From: Pseudomonadota bacterium
GTDB lineage: Bacteria; Pseudomonadota; Alphaproteobacteria; RF32; CAG-239
Direction: 5' to 3'
NCBI GenBank assembly: GCA_918234285.1
Contig: CAKJXZ020000036.1
Location: forward strand, 1 to 52,227
DNA length: 52,227 nt
The translations under genes and the position numbers were made by a program. Each line of letters opens with the position of its first letter. Position 1 is the first letter of the stretch. The notes under the pieces were generated by a model, which did no database searches, was not told where the DNA came from, and was given only the letters and a program-made list of their open reading frames with translations. This document shows, piece after piece, positions 1 through 10,819 of the stretch.

Positions 1-263
1 CCGCAAAACAGCAACACATTCGGCAGCACTCAGCAACCGAGCCAACCGGCCGGATTTACACCATCGCCGATACAACCGATGAGCCAAACTCCGGCGGCAG
101 TGGCAAATCAAATCGGCCAATCGAGTGGTAGTACTTCCTTGTTTGATAATCCGGATGCGATTAAGCAACAAAACGGCCAGCCGTCACCGGTTATGCAGGC
201 GATTTATCGCTATTTAGCCAACACCTACGGACAACAGAATATACCGAATATAATTGGGCAGAA
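1..263 (+). repeat. Conserved cassette-junction repeat, copy 1
   Basis: Near-identical to 4958-5220. The core is shared with 1899-2027, 3456-3614 and 6839-6884. Confidence 0.95.
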
Positions 264-933
264 TTCGCAAAGAACGGTGTATCGAAGTCTGACCGGCTTT
301 AGAGAAAATCAGCAACAATGGCATGAAAACAATCCGCAACAGGGAAACTATAATTATGTGCAAGATGAATACGAAAAAAATCCGCTCGTTAATGATTGCC
401 TTAAAAGCGAGAGGTATAAAACCTTTATTGACAACATTAAAAAACCCGAGAAAGAAGGGTTGGGATTTCATATATCCGATCAGGCAACAAATTCCGGCAT
501 ATCGCAAGGTTGGTATGACGATTTTTTGAAAGAATACCCGACAATAGCAAAAGTATATCCATCTAAAGTTAAAAATTTAACACAAGAACAGGTTGATAAT
601 CTTTATTGTCAGGGATTTTATAAACCTAATCATATTGAAACTTTCAATGACAATCATATTGCAGAGCAAATTTTTGATATCGGAGTAAATATAGGAGGCC
701 CTAAGGGTATTCCTATTATTCAAAATGCTTATAATGATATTAGCAATAATGATATCAGGGTTGATAACACTATAGGAACGGAAACTGTTTCTGCTATTAA
801 TCGTTTGCGCGATGATGAACTGTTGCGCTTAAACAACCAGATGGTTGATAGAAGACTAAAATATTATGATGGCTTAAGGGATAAAGATGAATACCCAGGT
901 TGGTATACGAGGGCAAAATCTTTCAGACGCTGA
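1..933 (+). CDS. Putative polymorphic toxin, conserved N-terminal block + GH108-like muramidase C-terminus (5' end outside window)
   Basis: Frame is open from base 1 (PQNSNTFGST...), and 1-263 is nearly identical to 4958-5220. The C-terminus has GH108-like motifs: EG..ATNSGIS, LTQEQVDNLY, IFDIGVNIG, VDNTIGTET, GWYTRA. Confidence 0.75.
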   Translation, partial: PQNSNTFGSTQQPSQPAGFTPSPIQPMSQTPAAVANQIGQSSGSTSLFDNPDAIKQQNGQPSPVMQAIYRYLANTYGQQNIPNIIGQNSQRTVYRSLTGFRENQQQWHENNPQQGNYNYVQDEYEKNPLVNDCLKSERYKTFIDNIKKPEKEGLGFHISDQATNSGISQGWYDDFLKEYPTIAKVYPSKVKNLTQEQVDNLYCQGFYKPNHIETFNDNHIAEQIFDIGVNIGGPKGIPIIQNAYNDISNNDIRVDNTIGTETVSAINRLRDDELLRLNNQMVDRRLKYYDGLRDKDEYPGWYTRAKSFRR

Positions 934-943
934 CATAAAATGA

Positions 944-972
944 TTGACAGAGGGGGAATCCCCCTCTGTCAA
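944..972. terminator. Bidirectional hairpin terminator
   Basis: Perfect 13-bp inverted repeat TTGACAGAGGGGG-aat-CCCCCTCTGTCAA between convergent genes. Confidence 0.75.
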
Positions 973-1814
973 CTGTTCGCCTCAATATTACGCAAAGAAC
1001 GTCTATAACTTCTGAGTATGGATAGCCAGTAAAAATCATATAAACGCATTATTTCTTCATTTTGTTTACCATTGTCATCAACCAATTGAGGAATAATTTC
1101 CTTGGTTAATTGCATTAGCTGTTTTGCATCATTAATTCTTTCCTTCTTTATTTTTTCTTTTTCCTCTTTTTTTTCTTCTTCTGTTGCCCATATATTTGTC
1201 AGTATTTTAAATTTTGCCATTCTTTTAATAATTTCATCTTGCATACAATTTTGAGGATTTTCGTTACTATTGCAAAGTTTCATAATTTTAGAGGGTTTAT
1301 TACAGGGTTCTGTATATGCATCGATGTCTTTGATTTTCTCTCCCGTTTCTAAACGACATTCAGGCCAACTTTCTTTCATAATAAGATTATAAATACGAAC
1401 TGCTAACTGTAAGGAGTATTCGTTCTTGTTGTCGAATGTAATGTTGAACGAAGTTAATATACCATCAGCTAATGATTGGTCCATTATAACGTTGCTAAAT
1501 ACTTTATGCAATTTAGCCAATAATTCTATTTGCTCCTTAGTTAATTTTTTATTGGTTTCCCAAGTTAGGCATAAAATTGCTCGAAAATTCAAGGTTTCCA
1601 TTAAACCAAAAGAACCTTTCGCCCATTCCATAACCTCAGCACATTCTACATCAATATCAGGTATCATTTCCGGCCTATTGTAAAAGTATTCAATCATAGC
1701 ATCAGATACCGTTTTATCGTGGTTTAAGTCATATTCTAAATTCACTGTTTGGGCAACTGCGGTTTGGATAAACAGCGAAAACAAGAATCCAATGCAACAA
1801 ACAAAATATTTCAT
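969..1814 (-). CDS. Exported protein, putative immunity protein for the adjacent GH108-like toxin
   Basis: Start reassigned to MKYFVCCIGFLFSLFIQTAVA (signal peptide). Convergent with the toxin gene and a distant paralogue of 5954..6721. Confidence 0.65.
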   Translation of the reverse strand: MKYFVCCIGFLFSLFIQTAVAQTVNLEYDLNHDKTVSDAMIEYFYNRPEMIPDIDVECAEVMEWAKGSFGLMETLNFRAILCLTWETNKKLTKEQIELLAKLHKVFSNVIMDQSLADGILTSFNITFDNKNEYSLQLAVRIYNLIMKESWPECRLETGEKIKDIDAYTEPCNKPSKIMKLCNSNENPQNCMQDEIIKRMAKFKILTNIWATEEEKKEEKEKIKKERINDAKQLMQLTKEIIPQLVDDNGKQNEEIMRLYDFYWLSILRSYRRSLRNIEANS

Positions 1815-1850
1815 TAATTTAACCTTTGGTGTAAAATGAATATTACTCAA

Positions 1851-1879
1851 TTTATAATTGATACAAGTGCTCCTGTCAA
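1851..1879 (-). promoter_or_regulatory. sigma70-type promoter
   Basis: TTGACA-17 nt-TATAAA on the minus strand, upstream of 969..1814. Confidence 0.7.
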
Positions 1880-1898
1880 GAGGAAATGAGACAACACC

Positions 1899-2027
1899 TC
1901 CTTGTTTGATAATCCGGATGCGATTAAGCAACAAAACGGCCAGCCGTCACCGGTGATGCAGGCGATTTACCGCTATTTAGACAATACCTACGGACAACAG
2001 AATATACCGAATATTATAGGGCAAAAT
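1899..2027 (+). repeat. Conserved cassette-junction repeat, copy 2
   Basis: Matches the core of copies 1 and 4. An in-frame TGA at 1887 lies just upstream. Confidence 0.95.
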
Positions 2028-2621
2028 AACGCTAATCAATCACAAAATATTAATCCACAGGAAATTCGTAAAATGATTTTTAATGGAACAAGCTGTGGTG
2101 GAATGTCCCCGGAATTTGCCGATAAAATAGCCAATGCAGAATCAAGGGGGAATTGTCAAAATAATATTAATGATTATGGCTGTGTCAACAAGGAGGGTGT
2201 TGCTTTTGGAAGATATCAAATGCAAGAGCCTGCTTTGATTGATGCTGGTTATATGGATAAGAATAAACATTTTATCCCGGAAACTGGTGTTAAAAATATG
2301 CAAGAGTTTTTAAATAGTCCGGAAGCGCAAGAACAAGCGATGTGTAATTATCTTGAGAAAGCCGACCAATACAATAAAAATTGGAATAATTATAAGTATC
2401 TGAATGAAAATGTTCAAGTTGGAGACATAAATATTCCATTAACTAAAGATATGATGTTAGCCGGAACTCATCGTGAAGGCGCAAAAAAACTCAATGAATG
2501 GTTGAATGATATAAAAATTCAAAAGGAGCGTTTGGAAAGAGATGTATATATTGATGAAAGAGATAGGAGAAGACGAAATATAACAAACCGTTTTAAGGAA
2601 ATTCTATATCCGCCTAAATAA
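1902..2621 (+). CDS. Orphan toxin cassette with lysozyme-like (lytic transglycosylase-type) C-terminus
   Basis: Begins inside the repeat and lacks the long N-terminus. Motifs IANAESRG, AFGRYQM..AL.DAGY, FLNSPEAQEQAM, LAGTH.EG. Confidence 0.65.
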   Translation: MFDNPDAIKQQNGQPSPVMQAIYRYLDNTYGQQNIPNIIGQNNANQSQNINPQEIRKMIFNGTSCGGMSPEFADKIANAESRGNCQNNINDYGCVNKEGVAFGRYQMQEPALIDAGYMDKNKHFIPETGVKNMQEFLNSPEAQEQAMCNYLEKADQYNKNWNNYKYLNENVQVGDINIPLTKDMMLAGTHREGAKKLNEWLNDIKIQKERLERDVYIDERDRRRRNITNRFKEILYPPK

Positions 2622-2624
2622 TAC

Positions 2625-2652
2625 TTGCATAATAAGGCAAAAGCGGTAGAAT
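2625..2652 (+). promoter_or_regulatory. Possible sigma70 promoter
   Basis: TTGCAT-16 nt-TAGAAT upstream of the ATG at 2682. Confidence 0.45.
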
Positions 2653-2681
2653 ATATTACAAATAACAACTTTAGGGATAAC

Positions 2682-3440
2682 ATGAGAAGATATTTGACAT
2701 CTATTCTGCTGCTTTTGTGCTTTGCGTTAGGTTGGTACTTTCTGTTTTTGCATAACAGATTACCGTCAAAAGAAAATTTTTATGCAAAACACCATATTGA
2801 AAATAACAGCATTATATCTTTATTTGATGAAAGCGAATGTCGGCGCGTGTTCTCTGAATTATATAACGAAAAATATGCGGATGATTTGCTGAAGTCGGTG
2901 AAGGAAGATATGGTATTGCCGGAACTGTATGAGGGTTTCTGTTTTCCCAAAAACAAAGTTACGTTTTATAATGCCAGGTATAAAGAGAATATACTCCAAT
3001 TAGGTTTAATCGAAAAAGATATTAAAAAATTGAATCTGGAAGTTACTGCCGATATGCTGAAAAAATGGTATATGGGAATGAGTGAAACCGAATTGGAACA
3101 AAGCGGGTTTTATTCGGCATTGTATACAGCAAGATTGGTGGCCAAAGCGGGAGAAAATATTTATCTCTTTGGTGATTATACGGATTGCGGAACAGACGGA
3201 TGCCTGATACAAACAGCTGTTAAAAATAATGATATTTGGACATTTCCCAGAGTTGATATAGGCTTTGCGTCTTGCGTTGCCAATAAAGATAAATCAAAAT
3301 ATGAATGTGATATTGTCGGCGGACATAGCGTATCTTGGCGCTCAGCCGCTGCTGATTATAAGCCGTTGGATGAATTGTTAAGCAGATATTATGAAATATA
3401 TGCCGATTATGTTCAACAATATTTGCAAAAGAAAAAATAA
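2682..3440 (+). CDS. Membrane-anchored exported protein, putative immunity protein
   Basis: MRRYLTSILLLLCFALGWYFLFL N-terminal TM segment after an AGGGA RBS. Cys-containing (DCGTDGC) and directly follows the lysozyme-like cassette. Confidence 0.6.
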   Translation: MRRYLTSILLLLCFALGWYFLFLHNRLPSKENFYAKHHIENNSIISLFDESECRRVFSELYNEKYADDLLKSVKEDMVLPELYEGFCFPKNKVTFYNARYKENILQLGLIEKDIKKLNLEVTADMLKKWYMGMSETELEQSGFYSALYTARLVAKAGENIYLFGDYTDCGTDGCLIQTAVKNNDIWTFPRVDIGFASCVANKDKSKYECDIVGGHSVSWRSAAADYKPLDELLSRYYEIYADYVQQYLQKKK

Positions 3441-3455
3441 ACGAACAGCGCTCTG

Positions 3456-3614
3456 GAGCAAACTCTGGCGGCGGGGTTAAATCAAATCGGCCAATCGAGT
3501 GGAAGCACTTACTTATTTGATAATCCGGATGCGATTAAGCAACAAAACGGCCAACCGTCACCGGTTATGCAGGCGATTTACCGTTATTTAGACAATACCT
3601 ACGGACAACAAAAT
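3456..3614 (+). repeat. Conserved cassette-junction repeat, copy 3
   Basis: Slightly diverged match to about 81-240. Confidence 0.9.
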
Positions 3615-4448
3615 CCGCAGACTTTACCGGCACAAGCGCAAACACCGCCGTCGACGCAACAACCGGAGAATAACGCTGTAAACACGGCACTCAATCAGCC
3701 TGGCAGTTATTTTCAGAGTAATAACAATACATCTGGTTGGAGTAGCAATATCAGTAGCTTTAGTGGTAACACAAACAACGCATTTAGCTCAAATATAAAT
3801 TTCGGAGCAAATCCGAGTTACAGCACAACACCGGATCCGCAAAATCAAACTTCTACACCATGGAATAATGATATTCAGGTTAATTCCTATATATTATCGG
3901 ATAATCAAAGACAATTAGCTAATAGCCAGGCATTAAAATATGCTAATCTTATAAAGCAAAAAGCATATAAGAATATAGATAATGAAATTATCAAGGCTGA
4001 TAATTCGTTAACTTCTAATCAAAAAATGATTAGATTATTTTGGAATAATCTACAGACTCTTAATCCGGCATATCGTATAGGAGAAACTTTCGGAACCTTA
4101 GAGTCTGCCAGACAAGAAATGAATAGTGTCAATAAAGACGGATATGATAATTATGCTCATCGTTATGGTATGTATACAAATGCACAAGATGGTATAGATA
4201 AAGCAGTATATTCTTTGGCAGCCGGTGGATTAAAAGAGCTTAAAGATGTATATGATAAAATTATCACTAATAAGCAATTTTGGAATGAATCAAATAAAAT
4301 TAAAAAGATTAATGCTACTTTGTCAGATAGCTGGAAGGATATCCAAAATAATTTTGAAGCAGTGAAAGCAGGGTTGCAAAATCCAAATATTGATGGTAGA
4401 TTATGGTTAAAAGATTTTGACTATAAAAATAATAAATGGAGAAAATGA
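3567..4448 (+). CDS. Orphan toxin cassette with serum-amyloid-A-like C-terminal domain
   Basis: Starts within the repeat. C-terminal MNSVNKDGYDNYAHRYGMYTNAQDG...KE...DSWKDIQNN resembles the SAA pattern M..AN..G.DKYFH.RG.Y.AA.RG...RE...DS..DQ.AN. Confidence 0.55.
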   Translation: MQAIYRYLDNTYGQQNPQTLPAQAQTPPSTQQPENNAVNTALNQPGSYFQSNNNTSGWSSNISSFSGNTNNAFSSNINFGANPSYSTTPDPQNQTSTPWNNDIQVNSYILSDNQRQLANSQALKYANLIKQKAYKNIDNEIIKADNSLTSNQKMIRLFWNNLQTLNPAYRIGETFGTLESARQEMNSVNKDGYDNYAHRYGMYTNAQDGIDKAVYSLAAGGLKELKDVYDKIITNKQFWNESNKIKKINATLSDSWKDIQNNFEAVKAGLQNPNIDGRLWLKDFDYKNNKWRK

Positions 4449-4645
4449 TGCAATATAAGTCGTTAAAGGAACGGAGTGGCTTATCAAAATTTATAATTAA
4501 ATGTTCCAAAATAATTTTAATCATGATATTGGCTTTTTTGTTGATAGGTGTCTTCTATTTAAGTTGGCAAGAACAACAGGATATAAAAAAGTGTATGCAA
4601 CAAGGGAATACATTTGATTATTGCTATGACCTGCATAATTGGTAA
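4445..4645 (+). CDS. Small single-TM protein, putative immunity protein
   Basis: ATGA overlap with the upstream stop, one TM helix and a C-terminal Cys pair. Confidence 0.6.
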   Translation: MMQYKSLKERSGLSKFIIKCSKIILIMILAFLLIGVFYLSWQEQQDIKKCMQQGNTFDYCYDLHNW

Positions 4646-4684
4646 GGTTAAAATAAAATCAGCTTGAACTTGATATTAACACCG

Positions 4685-4717
4685 GAAAACCGTGCGTATA
4701 AAAGCGTGCGGTTTTCG
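4685..4717 (+). promoter_or_regulatory. Hairpin upstream of the full-length toxin gene (terminator or leader structure)
   Basis: GAAAACCGTGCGT pairs with GCGTGCGGTTTTC (13 bp including G-U pairs). Confidence 0.4.
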
Positions 4718-4738
4718 CATTTTAAAAGGAAAAAGAAA

Positions 4739-5950
4739 ATGATAAATTTTAAAGATGAAGACGATCCGCAAAACGAAACGGTGCGGCAGACTTTGGAACG
4801 GGTAGCACGCGAGTTGGGGGTGTTCGGAACAACTCCGACCAACAACATTACTCACTCGCCGCAATCGCCGATGCAACAACCGACGGCGTGGAGCAGTTCG
4901 CCGAATTATTCTGCTACAGCGGCGAATAATTGGCAAATTAAACCTACAACATCAGTGCCGCAAAATAGCAACACATTCGGCAGCACTCCGCAACCGAGCC
5001 AACCGGCCGGATTTACACCATCGCCGACACAACCGATGAGCCAAACTCCGGCGGCAGTGGCAAATCAAACAGGTCAATCGAGTGGAAGTACTTCCTTGTT
5101 TGATAATCCGGATGCGATTAAGCAACAAAACGGCCAGCCGTCACCGGTTATGCAGGCGATTTACCGCTATTTAGACAATACCTACGGACAACAAAATATA
5201 CCGAATATTATAGAGCAAAACAAGGAAGATAACACTTTAAAACAAAATATAAATCCTGAAAATCCTGATTTTTCAGGTTACGCCAATTCTCCGTTGTATA
5301 TAGGATTGACGGCTCAACCGAGACAAGCTCATTTGAAAGGATTAGATAAGAGCTTAATTTCAAATCGAGAAATTGTAAATTCCCCTTATTCAAATAATAT
5401 TTTGGAAAATGATTGTTATCAAAGCGAACGTTTTGAGCCGTTTGCCAAACAAGTACGTTGGAATGAGGGGGAAAATCAAGGGGTTATTTATGCCACTTCT
5501 CAAGAGCATGGAACCGATCAGCCTACTAAATATGGTATTTCACAAGGTGCGTTGGATTTATACAGAAAAAAATTTGACGATATAGCTCGCACTTATCCGG
5601 CAAATATTAAAGATTTGAGTGAAGAGCAAGCTATGAATTTACTTTGCCAATACTATAAAGGTAGTAGAGCTGAAGCAATTAATGATCCCAATTTAGCATT
5701 CTCGGTCTACGATTCATATTTTAATAACCCTAACAATGCACCTATTGCATGGCAACAAACCTTAAAAAGCGGAGTAAATCCAAATATTCAAGTAGGTGGT
5801 GGCATCGGTAGTCAAACTATAAATAGCTTTAATTCTGTTCAAAGTGATGCGGAATTATTAGACACTTTTATCGAAAACAGAAAAAAGACACTCAATAAAA
5901 AATACAAAGACGGTTTGATAAATCGTTTTAGACGTTATCCTATCAAATAA
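4739..5950 (+). CDS. Full-length putative polymorphic toxin: P/Q/S/T-rich N-terminus + conserved block + GH108-like muramidase
   Basis: ATG at 4739 after AAGGA. Motifs NEG...DQPTKYGISQ, IKDLSEEQA, VYDSYFN, VGGGIGSQT, GLINRF. No signal peptide. Confidence 0.75.
   Translation: MINFKDEDDPQNETVRQTLERVARELGVFGTTPTNNITHSPQSPMQQPTAWSSSPNYSATAANNWQIKPTTSVPQNSNTFGSTPQPSQPAGFTPSPTQPMSQTPAAVANQTGQSSGSTSLFDNPDAIKQQNGQPSPVMQAIYRYLDNTYGQQNIPNIIEQNKEDNTLKQNINPENPDFSGYANSPLYIGLTAQPRQAHLKGLDKSLISNREIVNSPYSNNILENDCYQSERFEPFAKQVRWNEGENQGVIYATSQEHGTDQPTKYGISQGALDLYRKKFDDIARTYPANIKDLSEEQAMNLLCQYYKGSRAEAINDPNLAFSVYDSYFNNPNNAPIAWQQTLKSGVNPNIQVGGGIGSQTINSFNSVQSDAELLDTFIENRKKTLNKKYKDGLINRFRRYPIK
4958..5220 (+). repeat. 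Conserved cassette-junction repeat, copy 4
   Basis: Near-identical to 1-263. Confidence 0.95.
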
Positions 5951-5953
5951 TTT

Positions 5954-6721
5954 TTACGGAAAAGGAAGCGGATAGGGTTCTTTTAACTCTTCCGCTTCCA
6001 AATGCTCCAGACCGTTCATCTCTTCATACCAATATACATCCCCTTGATACATCCACGAATTGATAGGATTCATTAAATAGCTCTCACGAATTAAAACCAC
6101 AAAATGAAACAGCATATTATAATATTGCTGCATTTGTTTTTTTAATTTATTCTCATCATCGGTCATTGTTTTTAATAGTTCTAAGGTTGCTTGCGTCAGA
6201 TTATTAAGATTATAGATAACATTTCTGCGGCTTTCAATATTACATATTTTTAAAATATCTTGCTTTAAACATATCGGAACTTCGGTGATTTTGTCGTTAA
6301 GCGAGCAATTTATCTTATCCGGCTCGGGAAGTATAAAATCTTTGTCTGCAGTCAGCGCATAATAGATAAAACTCTGATATCGATACATCAATTCAGAACG
6401 TTCGGTATAAATAGTCCAATACCCTTTGTAATAAAGCAGGGCATCCAAATATTCTTCCGCTTGCGCTTTGGCTTTTTCGTATAATTCAAATTGTTGCGGA
6501 GTGCTGTGTTGTTTGATTTTATCCGAGAAACACCATATAACCCTGCCGGCATTACGTTGATCAGCAAATACTTCCCCTAATGTTCCTTCAAACTCTTTCA
6601 TAGATATAATCATATCTTCGCATTGTTCTGAAACTTTAGAGAAAGTAATATCCGTTTCTTTGGCAGATGTGTTACAGGTAAAATTCAATAGTAACCCTAA
6701 AATAAAAACAAACTTTTTCAT
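5954..6721 (-). CDS. Exported protein, putative immunity protein for the adjacent GH108-like toxin
   Basis: Signal peptide MKKFVFILGLLLNFTCNTSA. Convergent with the toxin gene, similar to 969..1814, with TTGACT-18-TATAAA upstream. Confidence 0.65.
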   Translation of the reverse strand: MKKFVFILGLLLNFTCNTSAKETDITFSKVSEQCEDMIISMKEFEGTLGEVFADQRNAGRVIWCFSDKIKQHSTPQQFELYEKAKAQAEEYLDALLYYKGYWTIYTERSELMYRYQSFIYYALTADKDFILPEPDKINCSLNDKITEVPICLKQDILKICNIESRRNVIYNLNNLTQATLELLKTMTDDENKLKKQMQQYYNMLFHFVVLIRESYLMNPINSWMYQGDVYWYEEMNGLEHLEAEELKEPYPLPFP

Positions 6722-6838
6722 TTTACAATCCCCTTATAATTGTATTTATAATAATTTTAAATCAAATAAGTCAAGGCAAAAATGAATTCTCCTGAATTAA
6801 TAAGAGAAACATACTCATACTCCGCAGCAAATGCGGTA

Positions 6839-6884
6839 ATTAAGCAACAAAACGGCCAACCGTCACCGGTTATGCAGGCGATTT
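6839..6884 (+). repeat. Remnant of cassette-junction repeat, copy 5
   Basis: ATTAAGCAACAAAACGGCCAACCGTCACCGGTTATGCAGGCGATTT, truncated on both sides. Confidence 0.9.
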
Positions 6885-6931
6885 TTTTTGTTCAAAAGCG
6901 GCAAAAATGCGGTAAATCGCGTAAAAATCTG

Positions 6932-6960
6932 TTGCATTTTAGACATTTTTTTGCTATGTT
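6932..6960 (+). promoter_or_regulatory. Possible sigma70 promoter of the LRR-like gene array
   Basis: TTGCAT-17 nt-TATGTT with a TG extension. Confidence 0.45.
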
Positions 6961-6990
6961 AGACATAAAGAAAAACTCGGAGCGGTAACT

Positions 6991-7989
6991 ATGGCTAAAT
7001 TAGATGATAATTATGACTTTGAACAGGACGGGAAGACTTATAACCTTGACCATCTGCCTGACGGTTTTGTGATTAAAGGCGACTTGAAATTAAGCGGCTT
7101 CTATACCCAATTGCCTGATTTATCAAAGGTCATAGTGGAAGGGGATTTCAGTTGCGAAAATTACAGGTTAACCACCCTGAAGGGAGCGCCGCAAAAGGTC
7201 GGCGGCAGCTTTGTTTGCGATAATATTTGTTTGACCTCGCTCGAAGGTGCGCCGCAAGAGGTTGGCGGTAGTTTTATTTGTAATAACAATGAATTAAACT
7301 CCTTAGAAGGCGCGCCGCAAAAAGTCGGCGGAGATTTTGTTTGCAATAATAGTTGGCTGATTTCAATCAAAGGCGCTCCGCAAGAGGTTGGCGGGGATTT
7401 TATCTGCCATCATAACGGAGTGGAAACTTTGGAAGGCGGGCCGCAAATTGTGGGCGGAAATTATGATTGTCACAGCAATCTGCTGGTTTCCTTAAAAGGG
7501 GCTCCGCAAGTGATTAACGGCGATTTTGATTGCAGTTGCGGCGATTTGGTTTCATTGGAAGGCGGGCCGCAAGTGGTGGGTGGTAATTTTGAATGCGAAA
7601 GCAATAAACTCTCCACTTTGTTCGGGGCACCGCGCGAAGTCGGCGGACGTTTTAACTGTGCACGAAATGAACTTATTACGTTGCGGGACGCTTCACAAAA
7701 GGTTGGCGGAGATTTTTGGTGTTCTGACAACAAATTAAAAACGCTTGCCGGATTGCCGGTATTAAATGATGAAAATAAGATTCATTGCGACTATAGTCTT
7801 GCAGAAAGGTACAATCTGGGTATTCTTGCCATCAAATATAAAGATTTAGTCGCCAGTCAGACTTATCAAAATGACGTTAAAATAGAAAAATTGCGGCATT
7901 TGGACAGAGAAGGTCGGCAGGAAGCGCAGGTTAAGCGTAATGCCGGATTTGCGGCGTTTAAGAAGCTGAAGGCCGAGGAACGGGAGTAA
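6991..7989 (+). CDS. 21-aa LRR-like repeat protein, paralogue 1 (~10 repeats)
   Basis: Repeats VGGxFxCxxNxLxSLEGAPQx. N-cap FEQDGKTY.L..LPDGFVIKGD; tail AGFAAFKKLKAEERE. Confidence 0.85.
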   Translation: MAKLDDNYDFEQDGKTYNLDHLPDGFVIKGDLKLSGFYTQLPDLSKVIVEGDFSCENYRLTTLKGAPQKVGGSFVCDNICLTSLEGAPQEVGGSFICNNNELNSLEGAPQKVGGDFVCNNSWLISIKGAPQEVGGDFICHHNGVETLEGGPQIVGGNYDCHSNLLVSLKGAPQVINGDFDCSCGDLVSLEGGPQVVGGNFECESNKLSTLFGAPREVGGRFNCARNELITLRDASQKVGGDFWCSDNKLKTLAGLPVLNDENKIHCDYSLAERYNLGILAIKYKDLVASQTYQNDVKIEKLRHLDREGRQEAQVKRNAGFAAFKKLKAEERE

Positions 7990-7994
7990 GGGGT

Positions 7995-9008
7995 ATGGCG
8001 GAATTAAACGATTTTTTTGAGTTTGAGCAAGATGGCAAAACTTATGACCTTTATAAACTGCCGGACGGGTTTGTCATTAAAGGCGATGTAAATCTAAGCA
8101 AAAAAGGTTTAACCGAGTTGCCGGATTTATCCAAAGTTTCGGTTGAAGGCTCTTTTTTTTGTAACAACAATCCGTTAACCTCCTTACTGGGAGCGCCGAA
8201 AAAAGTTGGCGGAAATTTTTATTGCAGCGGCAATAAACTGACTACCTTAGTTGGAGCGCCGCAAGAAGTCGGCGGAAATTTTTATTGCAACAATAATCAG
8301 CTAACCTCCTTAGAAGGTGCACCGAAAAAAGTTGGCGGAAATTTTTATTGTAGCGAGAATCAGTTAACCACATTACAAGGAGCACCTGAGGAAGTCGGAA
8401 GACATTTTTATTGCGACAATAATCAACTAACCACTTTACAAGGAGCTCCACAGAAAGTCGGCGGAGATTTTTATTGCGACAATAATCGACTGACTACCTT
8501 ACAGGGGGCGCCGAAAAAAGTCGGCAATGGTTTTTGTTGCTCCGAAAATAAACTCACTACCTTAAAAGGTGCACCGCAGGAAGTCGGTGGATATTTTGAG
8601 TGCCCCCATAATCAACTGACTTCCTTAGAAGGAGCACCGCGAGGAGTAGGTGAAGGTTTTTATTGCTCCCATAATCAACTGACCACCTTGCAGGGGGCAC
8701 CGCAAGAAATCGGGGGAGCATTTACGTGCGATGAAAATGATAATTTATCCTCCCTGGTGGGATTGCCTAAAATGCCGGATGATCAGAAAGTGTATTGCGA
8801 TTTGGTTTTAGCGGAAAAATATAATTGTCCGGAATCGAAAAATGATGGTATTTATTACCATGATTTGATTGAATGTACGGTTTATAAAAATGAGCTTAAA
8901 ATAGCAGAGCTCCGGCAGAAAAGACACGAGGAAAAAGAACAAAGACAAGCACAATTAAAAGCCGGATTTGCCGCGTTTAAGAAGAAACAGGCTGAGGAAC
9001 GGGAGTAA
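7995..9008 (+). CDS. 21-aa LRR-like repeat protein, paralogue 2 (~10 repeats)
   Basis: Same repeat, cap and tail (AGFAAFKKKQAEERE). Confidence 0.85.
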   Translation: MAELNDFFEFEQDGKTYDLYKLPDGFVIKGDVNLSKKGLTELPDLSKVSVEGSFFCNNNPLTSLLGAPKKVGGNFYCSGNKLTTLVGAPQEVGGNFYCNNNQLTSLEGAPKKVGGNFYCSENQLTTLQGAPEEVGRHFYCDNNQLTTLQGAPQKVGGDFYCDNNRLTTLQGAPKKVGNGFCCSENKLTTLKGAPQEVGGYFECPHNQLTSLEGAPRGVGEGFYCSHNQLTTLQGAPQEIGGAFTCDENDNLSSLVGLPKMPDDQKVYCDLVLAEKYNCPESKNDGIYYHDLIECTVYKNELKIAELRQKRHEEKEQRQAQLKAGFAAFKKKQAEERE

Positions 9009-9020
9009 GGAGTAAGGGGT

Positions 9021-10166
9021 ATGGCGAAAAACTTTTTACAGCGGTTAAAAGCAAAAGTCCAAAAGAAGGTTGAGACTATCGCCAAGTTTTTGCCGTATGA
9101 ACAGGACGGGAAAAAATATAATCTCTACGATATGCCCGACGGCTTTGTGATTAAGGGCGACGTGGATTTATCCGGAAAAGGTTTGACCGAGTTGCCGGAT
9201 TTATCCAAGGTTGTCGTGCAAGGAAATTTCTTCTGTAATGACAATCAGCTGACCTCTTTGCAAGGAGCACCTAAGGAAGTCGGAAGAGATTTTTATTGCG
9301 AAGACAATCAGTTAACCTCCTTACTGGGAGCGCCGCAAGAAGTCGGCGGAATGTTTAAATGCAATGATAACCGCTTAACCTCTTTGGAAGGAGCGCCGCA
9401 AAAGGTCGGCGGAATGTTTAAATGCAGTGATAACCGCTTAACTTCATTGGAAGGAGCGCCGCAAAAGGTCGGCGGAATGTTTAGCTGCAGTTATAACCGC
9501 TTAACTTCATTGGAAGGAGCGCCGCAAGAAGTCGGCGGAGCTTTCAGTTGCGAACATAATATGCTGAATACATTAAAGGGAGCTCCGCGCGTGGTCGGAG
9601 GGGATTTTTATTGCTATCACAATCATTTGACTACGCTGGACGGGGCACCGCAAAAGGTCGGAGGTGATTTTAATTGTAAAAACAATGGTCTGACTTCATT
9701 AAAAGGAATATCACCGAAAATCGGCGGAATTTTTTGGTGTGACGACAATGAGCTTACTTCGCTGGAAGGGGCGGTGACGGAGATTGCCGGAGATTTTTAT
9801 TGCCTTGATAATCTGCTTACCGAGTTAAAGGCATCTTCCTTGAAAATCGGCAGAGATTTTATTTGCGACGGCACCGAATTGGAATCGCTTCTCGGATTGC
9901 CGGTTATGAACGAACACGCGAAAATCTATTGCTCAAACAAAATATGCGCCAAATACGGTTTTCCGAGCAAGGGGGCGGATTTCGGTATAGAATACGGCGA
10001 TTTGACGGATAGTACGGAATATAATAAAGAACTGGCACTACACAGAATTTCCGATAAAAAACGCGCCGGTGAACGGGATAAAAATGAGGCGGAAAAGTTG
10101 GAAAAAAGACGCGCCGGATATGCGGCGTTCAAGAAGCTGAGAACCGAGAAGCGGGAAAAGGAGTAA
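9021..10166 (+). CDS. 21-aa LRR-like repeat protein, paralogue 3 (~11 repeats)
   Basis: Same repeat, with an extra basic N-terminal helix; tail AGYAAFKKLRTEKREKE. Confidence 0.85.
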   Translation: MAKNFLQRLKAKVQKKVETIAKFLPYEQDGKKYNLYDMPDGFVIKGDVDLSGKGLTELPDLSKVVVQGNFFCNDNQLTSLQGAPKEVGRDFYCEDNQLTSLLGAPQEVGGMFKCNDNRLTSLEGAPQKVGGMFKCSDNRLTSLEGAPQKVGGMFSCSYNRLTSLEGAPQEVGGAFSCEHNMLNTLKGAPRVVGGDFYCYHNHLTTLDGAPQKVGGDFNCKNNGLTSLKGISPKIGGIFWCDDNELTSLEGAVTEIAGDFYCLDNLLTELKASSLKIGRDFICDGTELESLLGLPVMNEHAKIYCSNKICAKYGFPSKGADFGIEYGDLTDSTEYNKELALHRISDKKRAGERDKNEAEKLEKRRAGYAAFKKLRTEKREKE

Positions 10167-10171
10167 GAGGT

Positions 10172-10819
10172 ATGGCTATATTAAACGATAAATTTGAGTT
10201 TGAACAAGACGGAAAAACCTATAACTTGTATGACTTGCCGGACGGTTTTGTGATTAAGGGCGATATAAATTTGTCGCGAAGAGATTTGACCGAGTTGCCG
10301 GATTTATCTAAGGTTATTGTTGAGGGTGGTTTTTATTGTGTCTATAATCAACTAACCTCCTTAAAAGGGGCACCCCAAGAAGTAGGTGGAGGTTTTTATT
10401 GCCGCTTTAATAAACTGACCTCCTTGCATGGAGCACCGCAAGAAGTCGGCGGATATTTTGATTGCTCTTCTAACAATCTTACTTCCATAAAAGGAGCGCC
10501 GCAAAAGGTTGGTGGAAAGTTTGATTGTCGGCACAATATCTTTTTGGAATCGTTGTACGGAATATCGGAGATGGCGGATTACGGCAAAATACTTTGCAGC
10601 GGCGAGTTAAATGAACGTTACGGGTTTATTGAAGGCAAAGCAATCAGATACAAAGAGTTGCTTGAAAGCTCAACCTATAAAACCGAGGCGCGTATTCACG
10701 AGATATTGAGCAAGAGACATACCAAAGAAAACGAAGCCGCAAAGGAACAAAGACAAACGCAAATCAAGGCCGGATTTGCCGCGTTCAAAAAGAGAAAGCA
10801 AACCGAGGAGCGGGAATAA
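10172..10819 (+). CDS. 21-aa LRR-like repeat protein, paralogue 4 (~4 repeats)
   Basis: Same repeat, cap and tail (AGFAAFKKRKQTEERE). Confidence 0.85.
   Translation: MAILNDKFEFEQDGKTYNLYDLPDGFVIKGDINLSRRDLTELPDLSKVIVEGGFYCVYNQLTSLKGAPQEVGGGFYCRFNKLTSLHGAPQEVGGYFDCSSNNLTSIKGAPQKVGGKFDCRHNIFLESLYGISEMADYGKILCSGELNERYGFIEGKAIRYKELLESSTYKTEARIHEILSKRHTKENEAAKEQRQTQIKAGFAAFKKRKQTEERE

Follow-up and report, generated by a model that had tools for sequence, protein, structure and literature searches.

A predicted polymorphic toxin and immunity array at the variable end of a podovirus-type gene cluster in an alphaproteobacterial genome

Polymorphic toxins are classified by their N-terminal trafficking domain. 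In the loci of Rhs, contact-dependent inhibition (CDI; CdiA) and MafB toxins, headless cassettes come after an expressed gene and have in common with it a short block of homology through which tips can be swapped (compare PMC3482391), and MuF toxins are known as phage-borne polymorphic toxins (PMC5576092; PMC11699363). Among the colicins, the release of colicin Ib is described as aided by prophage lysis genes (PMC7374059), and a disordered colicin domain as threading through a porin (PMC8561637). In this study, we analysed a 52,227-nt stretch of DNA (the window), which is contig C36 of an alphaproteobacterial genome of the GTDB lineage RF32; CAG-239 from a gut or rumen community (assembly GCA_918234285.1, here G000; 2.0 Mb, 71 contigs, 100% complete). 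From the sequence, we are confident that the first 6884 nt of the window hold a polymorphic toxin and immunity array that is tied to a phage-like element. The best explanation is an array of four predicted toxin-plus-immunity cassettes, two in an expressed form and two orphan, forming the variable 3' end of a podovirus-type cluster that resembles phage Mx8. In the following, C numbers denote contigs of G000, G numbers genomes of the family in a 201-genome sample, L numbers loci, P numbers database proteins and X numbers sequencing runs.

A repeat search found that a 263-nt block at 1-263 recurs at 4958-5220 with 94% identity, and that partial copies lie near 1899-2027 and 3456-3614. A 46-nt core is present five times (160-205, 1923-1968, 3534-3579, 5117-5162 and 6839-6884; pairwise identity 96-100%). 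Upstream of the core, the fifth copy diverges (74%) and copy 2 loses similarity at the block edge, and downstream of it every copy diverges within about 60 nt. Chance could hardly place five near-identical 46-mers within 7 kb, every one of them marking the 5' edge of a frame unrelated to the others. Two of the copies lie in genes of the full-length type, two in headless orphans, and one is a remnant. The GC content is 0.33-0.40 over the first 7 kb and 0.41-0.50 at 7-45 kb. The features of the array are as follows.

1..933, plus strand: cassette 1 toxin, with a frame open at the edge of the window and contig; N-module from about residue 74, junction block at 1-263, C-terminus like a GH108 muramidase.
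969..1814, minus strand: partner 1, a convergent 281-aa protein with a signal-peptide-like N-terminus (hydrophobic residues 2-20).
1899..2621, plus strand: cassette 2, a headless orphan; junction block, then a lysozyme/lytic-transglycosylase-like domain (probable, from a model).
2625..3440, plus strand: partner 2, 252-271 aa with an N-terminal membrane anchor; likely start at 2682.
3450..4448, plus strand: cassette 3, a headless orphan; junction block, P/Q/N/S-rich linker and a C-terminal domain without a family.
4436..4645, plus strand: partner 3, a 69-aa single-span membrane protein.
4685..4716, plus strand: leader hairpin with a 13-bp stem and a ribosome-binding site after it; it precedes every full-length gene of type 1.
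4739..5950, plus strand: cassette 4, an intact full-length toxin of 403 aa; helix motif, 100-residue linker, junction block at 4958-5220, GH108-like muramidase.
5954..6721, minus strand: partner 4, a convergent 255-aa protein with a signal-peptide-like N-terminus.
6839..6884, plus strand: junction-block remnant of 46 nt at the distal end of the array, 100% identical to the copy at 3534-3579.

An earlier sequence-only reading of this DNA had proposed the five copies including the 46-bp remnant, the fusion of each intact copy to a different AT-rich C-terminus, two long P/Q/S/T-rich heads beside two headless orphans, and an exported or membrane partner after each cassette. The repeat search, the frames in the list of open reading frames (ORFs), the GC content and the N-termini of all four partners bear it out on each of these points. 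It also held that the toxins carry no signal peptide and none of the Rhs, PAAR, LXG, VENN or MuF motifs. Our hydropathy scan (a 19-residue test) likewise found no hydrophobic N-terminus or signal peptide in the toxins of the window, and the Pfam matches of the window proteins included no Rhs, Rhs/YD repeat, PAAR, LXG, VENN, two-partner-secretion (TPS), MafB N-terminal or MuF domain. All four partners, in contrast, have signal-peptide or membrane N-termini as judged from their sequences.

The C-terminus differs in each intact copy: two are GH108 muramidases, one is lysozyme/lytic-transglycosylase-like in a model, and one has no family. Matches to Pfam were judged against the gathering cut-offs, and the NCBIfam and PHROGs libraries were used as well. 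Cassette 1 matched Glyco_hydro_108 (PF05838) at 38 bits and cassette 4 at 23.2 bits, against a cut-off of 21.2; both gave sub-threshold matches to PG_binding_3 (22.5 bits against 24.6 in cassette 1) and matched the endolysin PHROG 315 (7.1e-16 and 1.7e-12, respectively). The two GH108 C-termini are 36% identical to each other. When three of the toxins were compared by sequence with PDB chains, only chance-level rows were obtained.

The frame of cassette 2 (1902-2621) has a TTG start inside the block and a TGA just upstream, and its product matched nothing in Pfam, NCBIfam, PHROGs or the PDB sequences. Its AlphaFold2 model, made from a 10-row alignment, had a mean predicted local distance difference test (pLDDT) value of 70.3, and residues 111-239 were mostly at 80-93 per 10-residue block. 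Foldseek returned nothing at E <= 0.001 against the PDB. A structural search independent of Foldseek (VIA; 48,161 chains) placed the model closest to MltC (Z 7.6), MltE (7.3), phiKZ gp144 (6.8) and phi6 lysin (6.6), and 12 of the top 13 rows were lytic transglycosylases, lysozymes, phage lysins or cell-wall hydrolases (Z 5.4-7.6). Slt70 and T4 lysozyme followed lower down, and Tse3 from a type VI secretion system (T6SS) stood at rank 28. Since all Z values are under 8, we grade the lysozyme/lytic-transglycosylase-like fold as probable only. The frame of cassette 3 is open from 3450, with its first ATG at 3567. There was no Pfam, NCBIfam, PHROG or PDB sequence match for this cassette, and the Atlas values for YkzU, SAA and DUF6973 (0.86-0.88) and for Ntox44 (also below 0.9) are taken as leads only.

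Partner 1 had nothing above the cut-offs in Pfam, NCBIfam or PHROGs; its position makes it a candidate periplasmic immunity protein. Partner 4 is a further candidate for this role, with a shorter hydrophobic core that falls below the 19-residue test. These two partners, both of GH108 toxins, have no detectable similarity to each other. The second GH108 toxin has an intact partner only at the window copy; in its other two close copies, at L025 and L028, the gene is frameshifted and a truncated 104-aa homologue of partner 4 comes next. Modelled as a complex with the partner at 5954-6721, the GH108 C-terminus (residues 215-403 of 4739-5950) scored 0.00, which counts neither way. Partner 2 is present after all four close copies of the cassette-2 domain (96-100% identical) and absent at the fifth, a 27% relative on C12. 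Partner 3 follows four of five copies of the cassette-3 domain, and the fifth (in G172, 58% identical) has a different, multi-span partner of 191 aa.

The N-module was considered in the 403-aa protein of cassette 4. Its residues 1-30 are charged, with a helix at 10-25 in a low-confidence model; residues 31-130 consist to 72% of P/Q/S/T/N/G with 6% scattered aromatic residues; and residues 131-165 form the conserved junction, with a helix at 136-149 in the same low-confidence model. The AlphaFold2 model of the full protein (10-row alignment) had a mean pLDDT of 35.6, which was unusable for a fold search of the N-module. The composition and the lack of predicted structure in this low-confidence model agree with a linker that is probably disordered. 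The N-module matched nothing in Pfam, NCBIfam or PHROGs, and no known secretion route was assigned to it. A word-indexed search of 5.8 billion proteins gave seven proteins, three of them from G000 itself, and all of these proteins are named only 'hypothetical protein' in the databases. A profile search of 1.84 billion representatives gave three matches, only its own kin and one spurious; the spurious one, P0008, was dropped because its ORF spans DNA repeated in tandem. In the 201 family genomes, the module was convincing in G000 and G125 only, and weak matches in G116 and G126 (E 5-7e-4, 27-28% identity, frames of 1833 aa) were taken as low-complexity chance. It was found at three loci in two rumen metagenome-assembled genomes (MAGs) labelled Alphaproteobacteria among 185,579 species genomes, and at five loci in metagenome contigs, two of which are the same records as the species-genome loci. 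In IMG/VR, 180 pattern matches gave no confirmed case. The module is thus confined to a handful of rumen and gut assemblies. An 'ETV' motif at the N-terminus was read as a TonB box, and this was dropped because the TonB C-terminal domain (TonB_C) was not found in the genome and the segment models as a helix.

These searches bear on two expectations of the sequence-only reading. The N-terminal block matched no known delivery domain in the family libraries or the profile search, and the homologues carry variable C-termini, as that reading would have it. Its proposal of an undescribed trafficking domain holds in so far as the module matches no described family. The trafficking role itself is less well served by a region that is mostly P/Q/S/T/N/G (about 72% over 100 residues) with two short predicted helices.

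A leader of about 55 nt (4680-4738 in the window) is conserved in all seven upstream regions that were aligned, and it is kept behind virion genes, partner genes and non-phage genes alike. The hairpin in it folds at -20.3 kcal/mol (z -2.8) and was not flagged by a terminator scan. An Rfam scan of 1-7000 gave one sub-threshold IS009 row and no match for the hairpin, which could be a terminator, an attenuator or a protein-binding site.

The head of cassette 1 that is missing from the window appears to be the end of another contig. Residues 1-65 of the N-module stand at the end of C37, and C36 opens at residue 74. As these contigs hold the only two broken copies of the N-module in the genome, they most likely abut. 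A contig of run X5 connects 170-807 with N-module sequence (4828-5036). On C37, the toxin gene starts 39 nt past the last virion structural gene of a row that consists of a scaffold, a major head protein (PHROG 9953, 8.5e-97), a tail protein, an 'amidase', a GNAT acyltransferase and a virion structural protein (PHROGs 9953, 6013, 5107 for the 'amidase', 4470 and 6121). The capsid shares 47.6% identity with its counterpart in Myxococcus phage Mx8, and the genes follow the order of Mx8 p48-p54, so that both order and similarity agree with an Mx8-like structural row from the capsid gene to the virion protein gene. The same row ends in a toxin gene at L021 (type-1 head) and L026 (type-2 head), and its order is found in 21 further genomes of the genus. 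The L026 toxin joins a type-2 head to a Pesticin-family lysozyme and is followed by a convergent signal-peptide ORF.

The capsid gene is present, mostly as a single copy, in 96 of the 201 family genomes and in all 23 genomes of the genus census, which takes one genome per species and contains relatives that are not independent of each other. Its identity declines with taxonomic distance. Terminase and portal were each found in 39 of 41 genus genomes and in 26 of the 26 high-quality ones. In G002, G069 and G188, the genes run mutS, a MazG-like gene, priA, a divergent helix-turn-helix (HTH) regulator, two small genes, portal and tail fibres. It continues with holin, a SleB-like lysozyme, Rz, terminase, small ORFs, scaffold and capsid, and later with the virion protein and the slot, as we call the DNA after the last virion-protein gene. 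No integrase or replication gene lies between priA and the slot in these three genomes. The element is about 17-19 kb long and adjoins mutS and priA in all four genomes examined; in G000 its parts are on C71, C66 and C37, and C71 (1-3010) shows the same priA-HTH-portal edge. Lying at one chromosomal locus, the element looks domesticated, like a gene transfer agent (GTA) of podovirus type.

C16 (1-19500; L060) of G000 carries a second, more complete-looking Mx8-like prophage, with a capsid 70% identical to the C37 copy, its portal between terminase and scaffold, proteins of 343 and 844 aa after the virion-protein gene, and also a plain 177-aa GH108 endolysin. Between terminase and scaffold of the first element, open frames at C66:3-494 and C37:3-2444 are cut by the contig ends and probably form one protein of about 1000 aa. 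The 814-aa part on C37 has no Pfam or PHROG match, and the N-terminus on C66 resembles the 844-aa protein of C16 by eye.

The slot was read in all 23 genus genomes. It holds toxin-like or immunity-like genes in 17 of them, and also in two further assemblies. Nine genomes have a toxin-like ORF without hydrophobic segments 26-96 nt downstream of the virion gene. The heads in the slot are type-1 (the N-module of the window) or type-1-like in G000, G125, G172 and G161, type-2 in G188 and G176, and type-4 in G025, G167 and G184. In seven genomes (G069, G057, G002, G042, G105, G115 and G093), the slot contains only a 145-aa three-span protein, a homologue of the type-4 toxin's partner in G025 and G167, and in G145 it contains membrane proteins followed by two type-3 toxins. 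It is empty of such genes in six genomes (G200, G135, G081, G192, G180 and G154). In other genera, tail-fibre genes follow in five of six loci, and the sixth fetched stretch was without the virion gene. Relatives in the slot matched Tlde1_dom (36.1 bits, cut-off 30.1), YkuD (30.5, cut-off 23.4) and Pesticin (27.4, cut-off 25.8); a second Pesticin match of 23.4 bits is below the cut-off.

Heads, tips and partners are shuffled. At least four unrelated types of N-terminus occur on the same toxin domains, and proteins with the type-1 N-module carry at least six unrelated C-termini. The cassette-2 domain, headless in the window, stands on a full-length type-1 gene at the valS locus of the MAG Tb.RUG.243 (L019) and on type-4 N-termini in P0015, P0017, P0018 and P0020. 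That of cassette 3 stands on a type-2 N-terminus in L020 and on a short, 204-aa type-1 protein in G172. A pore-like domain on C50 recurs on type-1 (P0002-4, P0006), type-4 (P0009-11) and another N-terminus (P0012), and nearly alone in G134; from its sequence, we would guess that this tip acts on the membrane. A cognate partner lies within 600 nt of four of five cassette-2-type copies, four of five cassette-3-type copies, three of three pore-like copies (two small membrane proteins each), four of five P0005-type copies and four of four pesticin-like copies. Summed over these five domain types as listed, the pairing is kept in 19 of 22 copies regardless of the head. Toxin-partner pairs are 94-100% identical across assemblies. 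In runs X3 and X4, contigs link the copy-3 block (from 3455) with N-module sequence (to 5036). As short unitigs, whose shorter side measures 38-79 nt, they reveal that the block is mosaic but not which tip follows. The expectation of cassette shuffling across strains is thus borne out by the orphan tips found on full-length or other heads elsewhere and by the mosaic contigs in X3, X4 and X5.

G000 itself holds further arrays or remnants at C24:73371-76499, C12:48594-51246, C12:83872-86262, C69:21267-21994 and C50:5952-9318. Among their parts are heads of type 4, tips of the P0005 and lysozyme-like kinds, signal-peptide ORFs rich in Cys, and multi-span partners; the C50 array sits at valS. Another array is on C3 (115837-119265; L065), between an ftsK-like gene and rpsD and outside any phage. 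There, a fragmented gene has a type-2-like N-terminal motif followed by a sub-threshold Phage_Mu_F match (22.6 bits, cut-off 29.6), the MuF-like core matches 'head morphogenesis' or 'minor capsid' genes in three phage records, and two pesticin-like domains each have a signal-peptide ORF. This gene may link the type-2 head to MuF toxins.

Taken together, the locus has three of four features of polymorphic toxins, namely a shared N-terminal region with diverse tips, an adjacent partner that travels with the tip, and orphans that share the block. The fourth, a trafficking domain of a known route, was not found with Pfam, NCBIfam, PHROGs or the profile search. The Rhs-, CDI- or MafB-like organisation that had been proposed therefore stands for the shared block, the unrelated tips, the partners and the orphans. 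It does not extend to the N-termini; these are themselves polymorphic, so the system resembles modular colicin-like bacteriocins or phage-borne toxins more than Rhs, CDI or MafB.

Our results suggest the following mechanism. Each toxin would consist of a short N-terminal recognition motif, a disordered linker ending in the junction block, and a C-terminal enzyme with periplasmic action. Homologous recombination within the junction block and the preceding P/Q-rich DNA would exchange tips, each with its immunity gene, among expressed gene, orphans and other loci. The toxins would be made in the cytoplasm with or alongside the late genes of the element, be released by its own holin, lysozyme and spanin cassette, and be taken up by neighbours like the Tol-dependent colicins, pesticin and colicin M, with the disordered N-terminal region threaded through the outer membrane. 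Kin without the matching immunity gene would be killed, and the periplasmic or membrane partners would protect against incoming toxin. Because the toxins have no signal peptide, they could not reach the cell wall of their own producer, and cytoplasmic toxins with wall or membrane targets and extracytoplasmic partners imply that the partners guard only against toxin from outside.

As to delivery, the T6SS core genes TssC and Hcp were not found in G000, no MuF domain was above the cut-off in G000 (the sole match being the sub-threshold one on C3), and the one two-partner-secretion transporter (ShlB family, 88 bits, on C42) would not be usable by proteins without a signal peptide and a TPS domain. 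This leaves two routes that are tied to the element, uptake as a bacteriocin and delivery by a particle. The bacteriocin route is favoured because head, tip and immunity all shuffle, the linkers resemble translocation regions of the disordered kind, one structural gene set goes together with several unrelated heads, the genes are dispensable, immunity-only genomes are common, and the Pesticin family and TolB (TolB_N, present in G000) occur. The whole explanation, with lysis release and colicin-like uptake, is tentative; we would place it somewhat short of an even chance.

Several observations weigh against the bacteriocin route. TonB_C was not found in the complete genome, which leaves only a Tol-type route open, and no structured receptor-binding domain is evident in the toxins. 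Some slot proteins are only 150-200 aa in all, which is small for colicin-like import. The toxin genes immediately follow virion genes and share their strand, a position that would suit a virion component, and the combination on C3 of a type-2-like motif, a sub-threshold MuF match and pesticin-like domains favours particle cargo. With a hairpin between the last virion gene and the toxin gene, co-transcription with the late genes is not assured. In addition, the C37-C36 join was drawn from contig ends and not assembled, and the fold match of cassette 2 is middling (Z below 8).

The main rival is particle cargo. The N-terminal motifs would dock the toxins in or on a podovirus-type particle, the disordered linker would let them through the tail channel, the toxins would be ejected into the periplasm of the recipient in the manner of podoviral internal or ejection proteins, and immunity would spare kin that are hit, making this a periplasm-directed analogue of the MuF toxins. 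In all 11 loci with a toxin gene, that gene starts 26-96 nt after the last virion structural gene on the same strand; Mx8 has the virion structural proteins p55-p57 at the corresponding positions, and the second Mx8-like prophage of G000 has its 343- and 844-aa proteins there. Periplasm-acting domains suit what podoviral ejection proteins meet. On C3, a type-2-like motif precedes a MuF-like core (below the cut-off, matching three phage records), and the MuF toxins cited above are the known phage-borne polymorphic toxins. Particles are plausible since 39 of 41 genus genomes retain portal and terminase. Against particle cargo, the genes are dispensable, with the slot empty in 6 of 23 genomes and holding an immunity-like orphan only in 7 of 23. 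At least four unrelated N-termini accompany one conserved structural set, even inside one genome. The valS locus, C12 and C3 carry full-length genes well away from the element, the window proteins match neither MuF nor another head-targeting family, and the hairpin separates virion gene and toxin gene. We consider particle cargo rather unlikely, while giving it more weight than any other rival. A more far-reaching reading, a domesticated podovirus-type particle of a GTA-like or 'killer' kind in or on which polymorphic N-modules load periplasm-acting toxins and for which immunity genes mark kin, appears distinctly unlikely.

It might also be supposed that a conventional toxin island, with contact-dependent or vesicle export, merely sits in a recombination hot spot beside an unrelated phage-like cluster. 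Arrays away from the cluster (C50 at valS, C24, C12, C69 and C3), the ShlB-family transporter on C42 (88 bits) and tandem leucine-rich-repeat-like (LRR-like) genes in the same hot spot are consistent with this idea. We find it improbable: the toxins have no signal peptide or TPS domain, TssC and Hcp were not found, and a slot after the same virion gene that is filled in 17 of 23 genomes and two further assemblies is hard to call chance.

A further possibility is that the C-termini are virion wall hydrolases or channel formers for entry, and the partners are inhibitors for superinfection exclusion, both diversified by an arms race. Cell-wall hydrolase domains with periplasmic partners within a virion gene row fit this proposal, and T4 Spackle is described as a periplasmic inhibitor of the virion lysozyme gp5 (PMC7677548). 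However, Pesticin and Tlde1, the families of the relatives, are established antibacterial weapons, one genome stacks several different enzymes together with headless orphans, immunity-only genomes are typical of toxin systems, and the slot is empty in 6 of 23 genomes, indicating that the gene is not needed for entry. We regard an entry function as quite improbable.

Decay into relics of phage lysis or tail genes without present function is very improbable: two of the four window cassettes are headless, the L025 and L028 copies are frameshifted and the C3 gene is in fragments, but frames of 239-403 aa are intact, toxin-partner pairs are kept at 94-100% identity across assemblies, and the element has a separate lysis cassette. 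A reading of the array itself as a lysis cassette of endolysin and holin was rejected, because endolysins lack disordered heads of 160 residues as well as periplasmic partners, and because the element already brings a holin, a lysozyme and an Rz gene of its own.

Two other observations concern the window around the array. At 6991-10819 there are four tandem genes whose 21-aa (63-nt) repeats resemble leucine-rich repeats by eye. Both termini of the proteins are conserved, a signal peptide is absent, and Pfam gave nothing above the cut-off. Such genes also occur at C50:1-639, L019:9827-11416, L020:3349-8926, L025:6215-7063 and L028:2879-4441, and they accompany toxin arrays at two loci in two genomes. 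At 937-1404, the summed contig depth was 47-775 in three metagenome runs, with many loose ends at 1139-1182, and 11-12 in the likely source run. This peak is probably cross-matching from other organisms, since the stretch encodes the Lys/Glu-rich low-complexity part of partner 1.

The N-termini described here match nothing described and are themselves swapped, in a genome in which no TssC, Hcp or MuF above the cut-off was found. The fixed place at the end of a genus-wide podovirus-type cluster would be a new kind of link between warfare among bacteria and a phage-derived element, and each of the two delivery routes would itself be new. The array points to an undescribed means of arming against close relatives. 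If lysis release and uptake hold, colicin-like bacteriocins with Rhs-style orphan arrays reach into the uncultured gut Alphaproteobacteria. Particle cargo would make this the first periplasm-directed counterpart of the MuF toxins, and a domesticated particle would mean phage-particle-based delivery of polymorphic toxins for Gram-negative cells. The array also offers several unannotated candidate pairs of wall toxin and immunity protein for biochemistry, and a natural test case for the idea that toxin-immunity slots control kin recognition around gene-transfer-like particles.

In comparison with known systems, GTAs are similar in that head, tail and lysis genes form a compact cluster at one locus, free of integrase and replication genes; here the capsid gene is in 23 of 23 genus genomes. 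RcGTA is of the siphovirus type, whereas the present element is of the podovirus (Mx8-like) type. To our knowledge, no GTA has a toxin-immunity slot. A literature search on the comparison families turned up nothing on this lineage, at which it was not aimed, and is weak evidence of absence.

The MuF toxins, including Bxa, are described as lying in the late region of phages and prophages with variable toxin tips and adjacent immunity genes, as abundant in gut microbiomes and as still unproven in their delivery (PMC5576092; PMC11699363), and in these respects they are alike. They differ in that the window proteins have no N-terminal Phage_Mu_F (PF04233), and the host here is an alphaproteobacterium with a podovirus-type element and polymorphic N-termini. 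The MuF packaging module stands beside the portal; here the portal lies upstream of the tail fibres, and the toxin gene, about 5 kb past the capsid gene, comes after the GNAT and virion-protein genes, the latter tail-fibre-like. Unlike in MuF toxins, the domains identified here are wall-acting or membrane-active-looking, and no nuclease, ADP-ribosyltransferase or alarmone-synthetase family was matched. The T6SS effectors Tlde1 and pesticin-domain VgrG/TssI, as described in PMC9638812, PMC9927483 and PMC9620997, belong to toxin families that also occur in relatives of the slot and have periplasmic immunity, and they differ in requiring a secretion system whose TssC and Hcp were not found in G000. 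The proteins of the array are 10 to 30 times smaller than Rhs or CdiA and have none of the N-terminal domains of Rhs, CDI or MafB toxins in Pfam. Judged from the sequences, this is not a MuF toxin, in view of the missing MuF domain and the other position, and it is not Rhs, CDI or MafB.

Colicin-like proteins such as pesticin and colicin M are described as periplasm-acting toxins with no signal peptide and a disordered N-terminal region, with periplasmic or inner-membrane immunity proteins that are often convergent, with all modules shuffled, and with release tied to a lysis function (PMC3390615; PMC5821083; PMC8561637). The array is like them in the missing signal peptides, the shuffled modules and the periplasmic or membrane partners, two of them convergent; its N-terminal regions are probably disordered, its toxins would likewise act in the periplasm and be released through a lysis function, and the Pesticin family is found in relatives of the slot. 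It differs in having no recognisable receptor-binding domain, in the lack of a TonB_C match in the genome, and in being chromosomal at the end of a phage-type cluster rather than plasmid-borne. Tandem orphan cassettes with a shared recombination block, atypical of colicin operons, are present here. The closest systems in logic are the colicin-like bacteriocins, with Rhs-style orphan arrays in addition.

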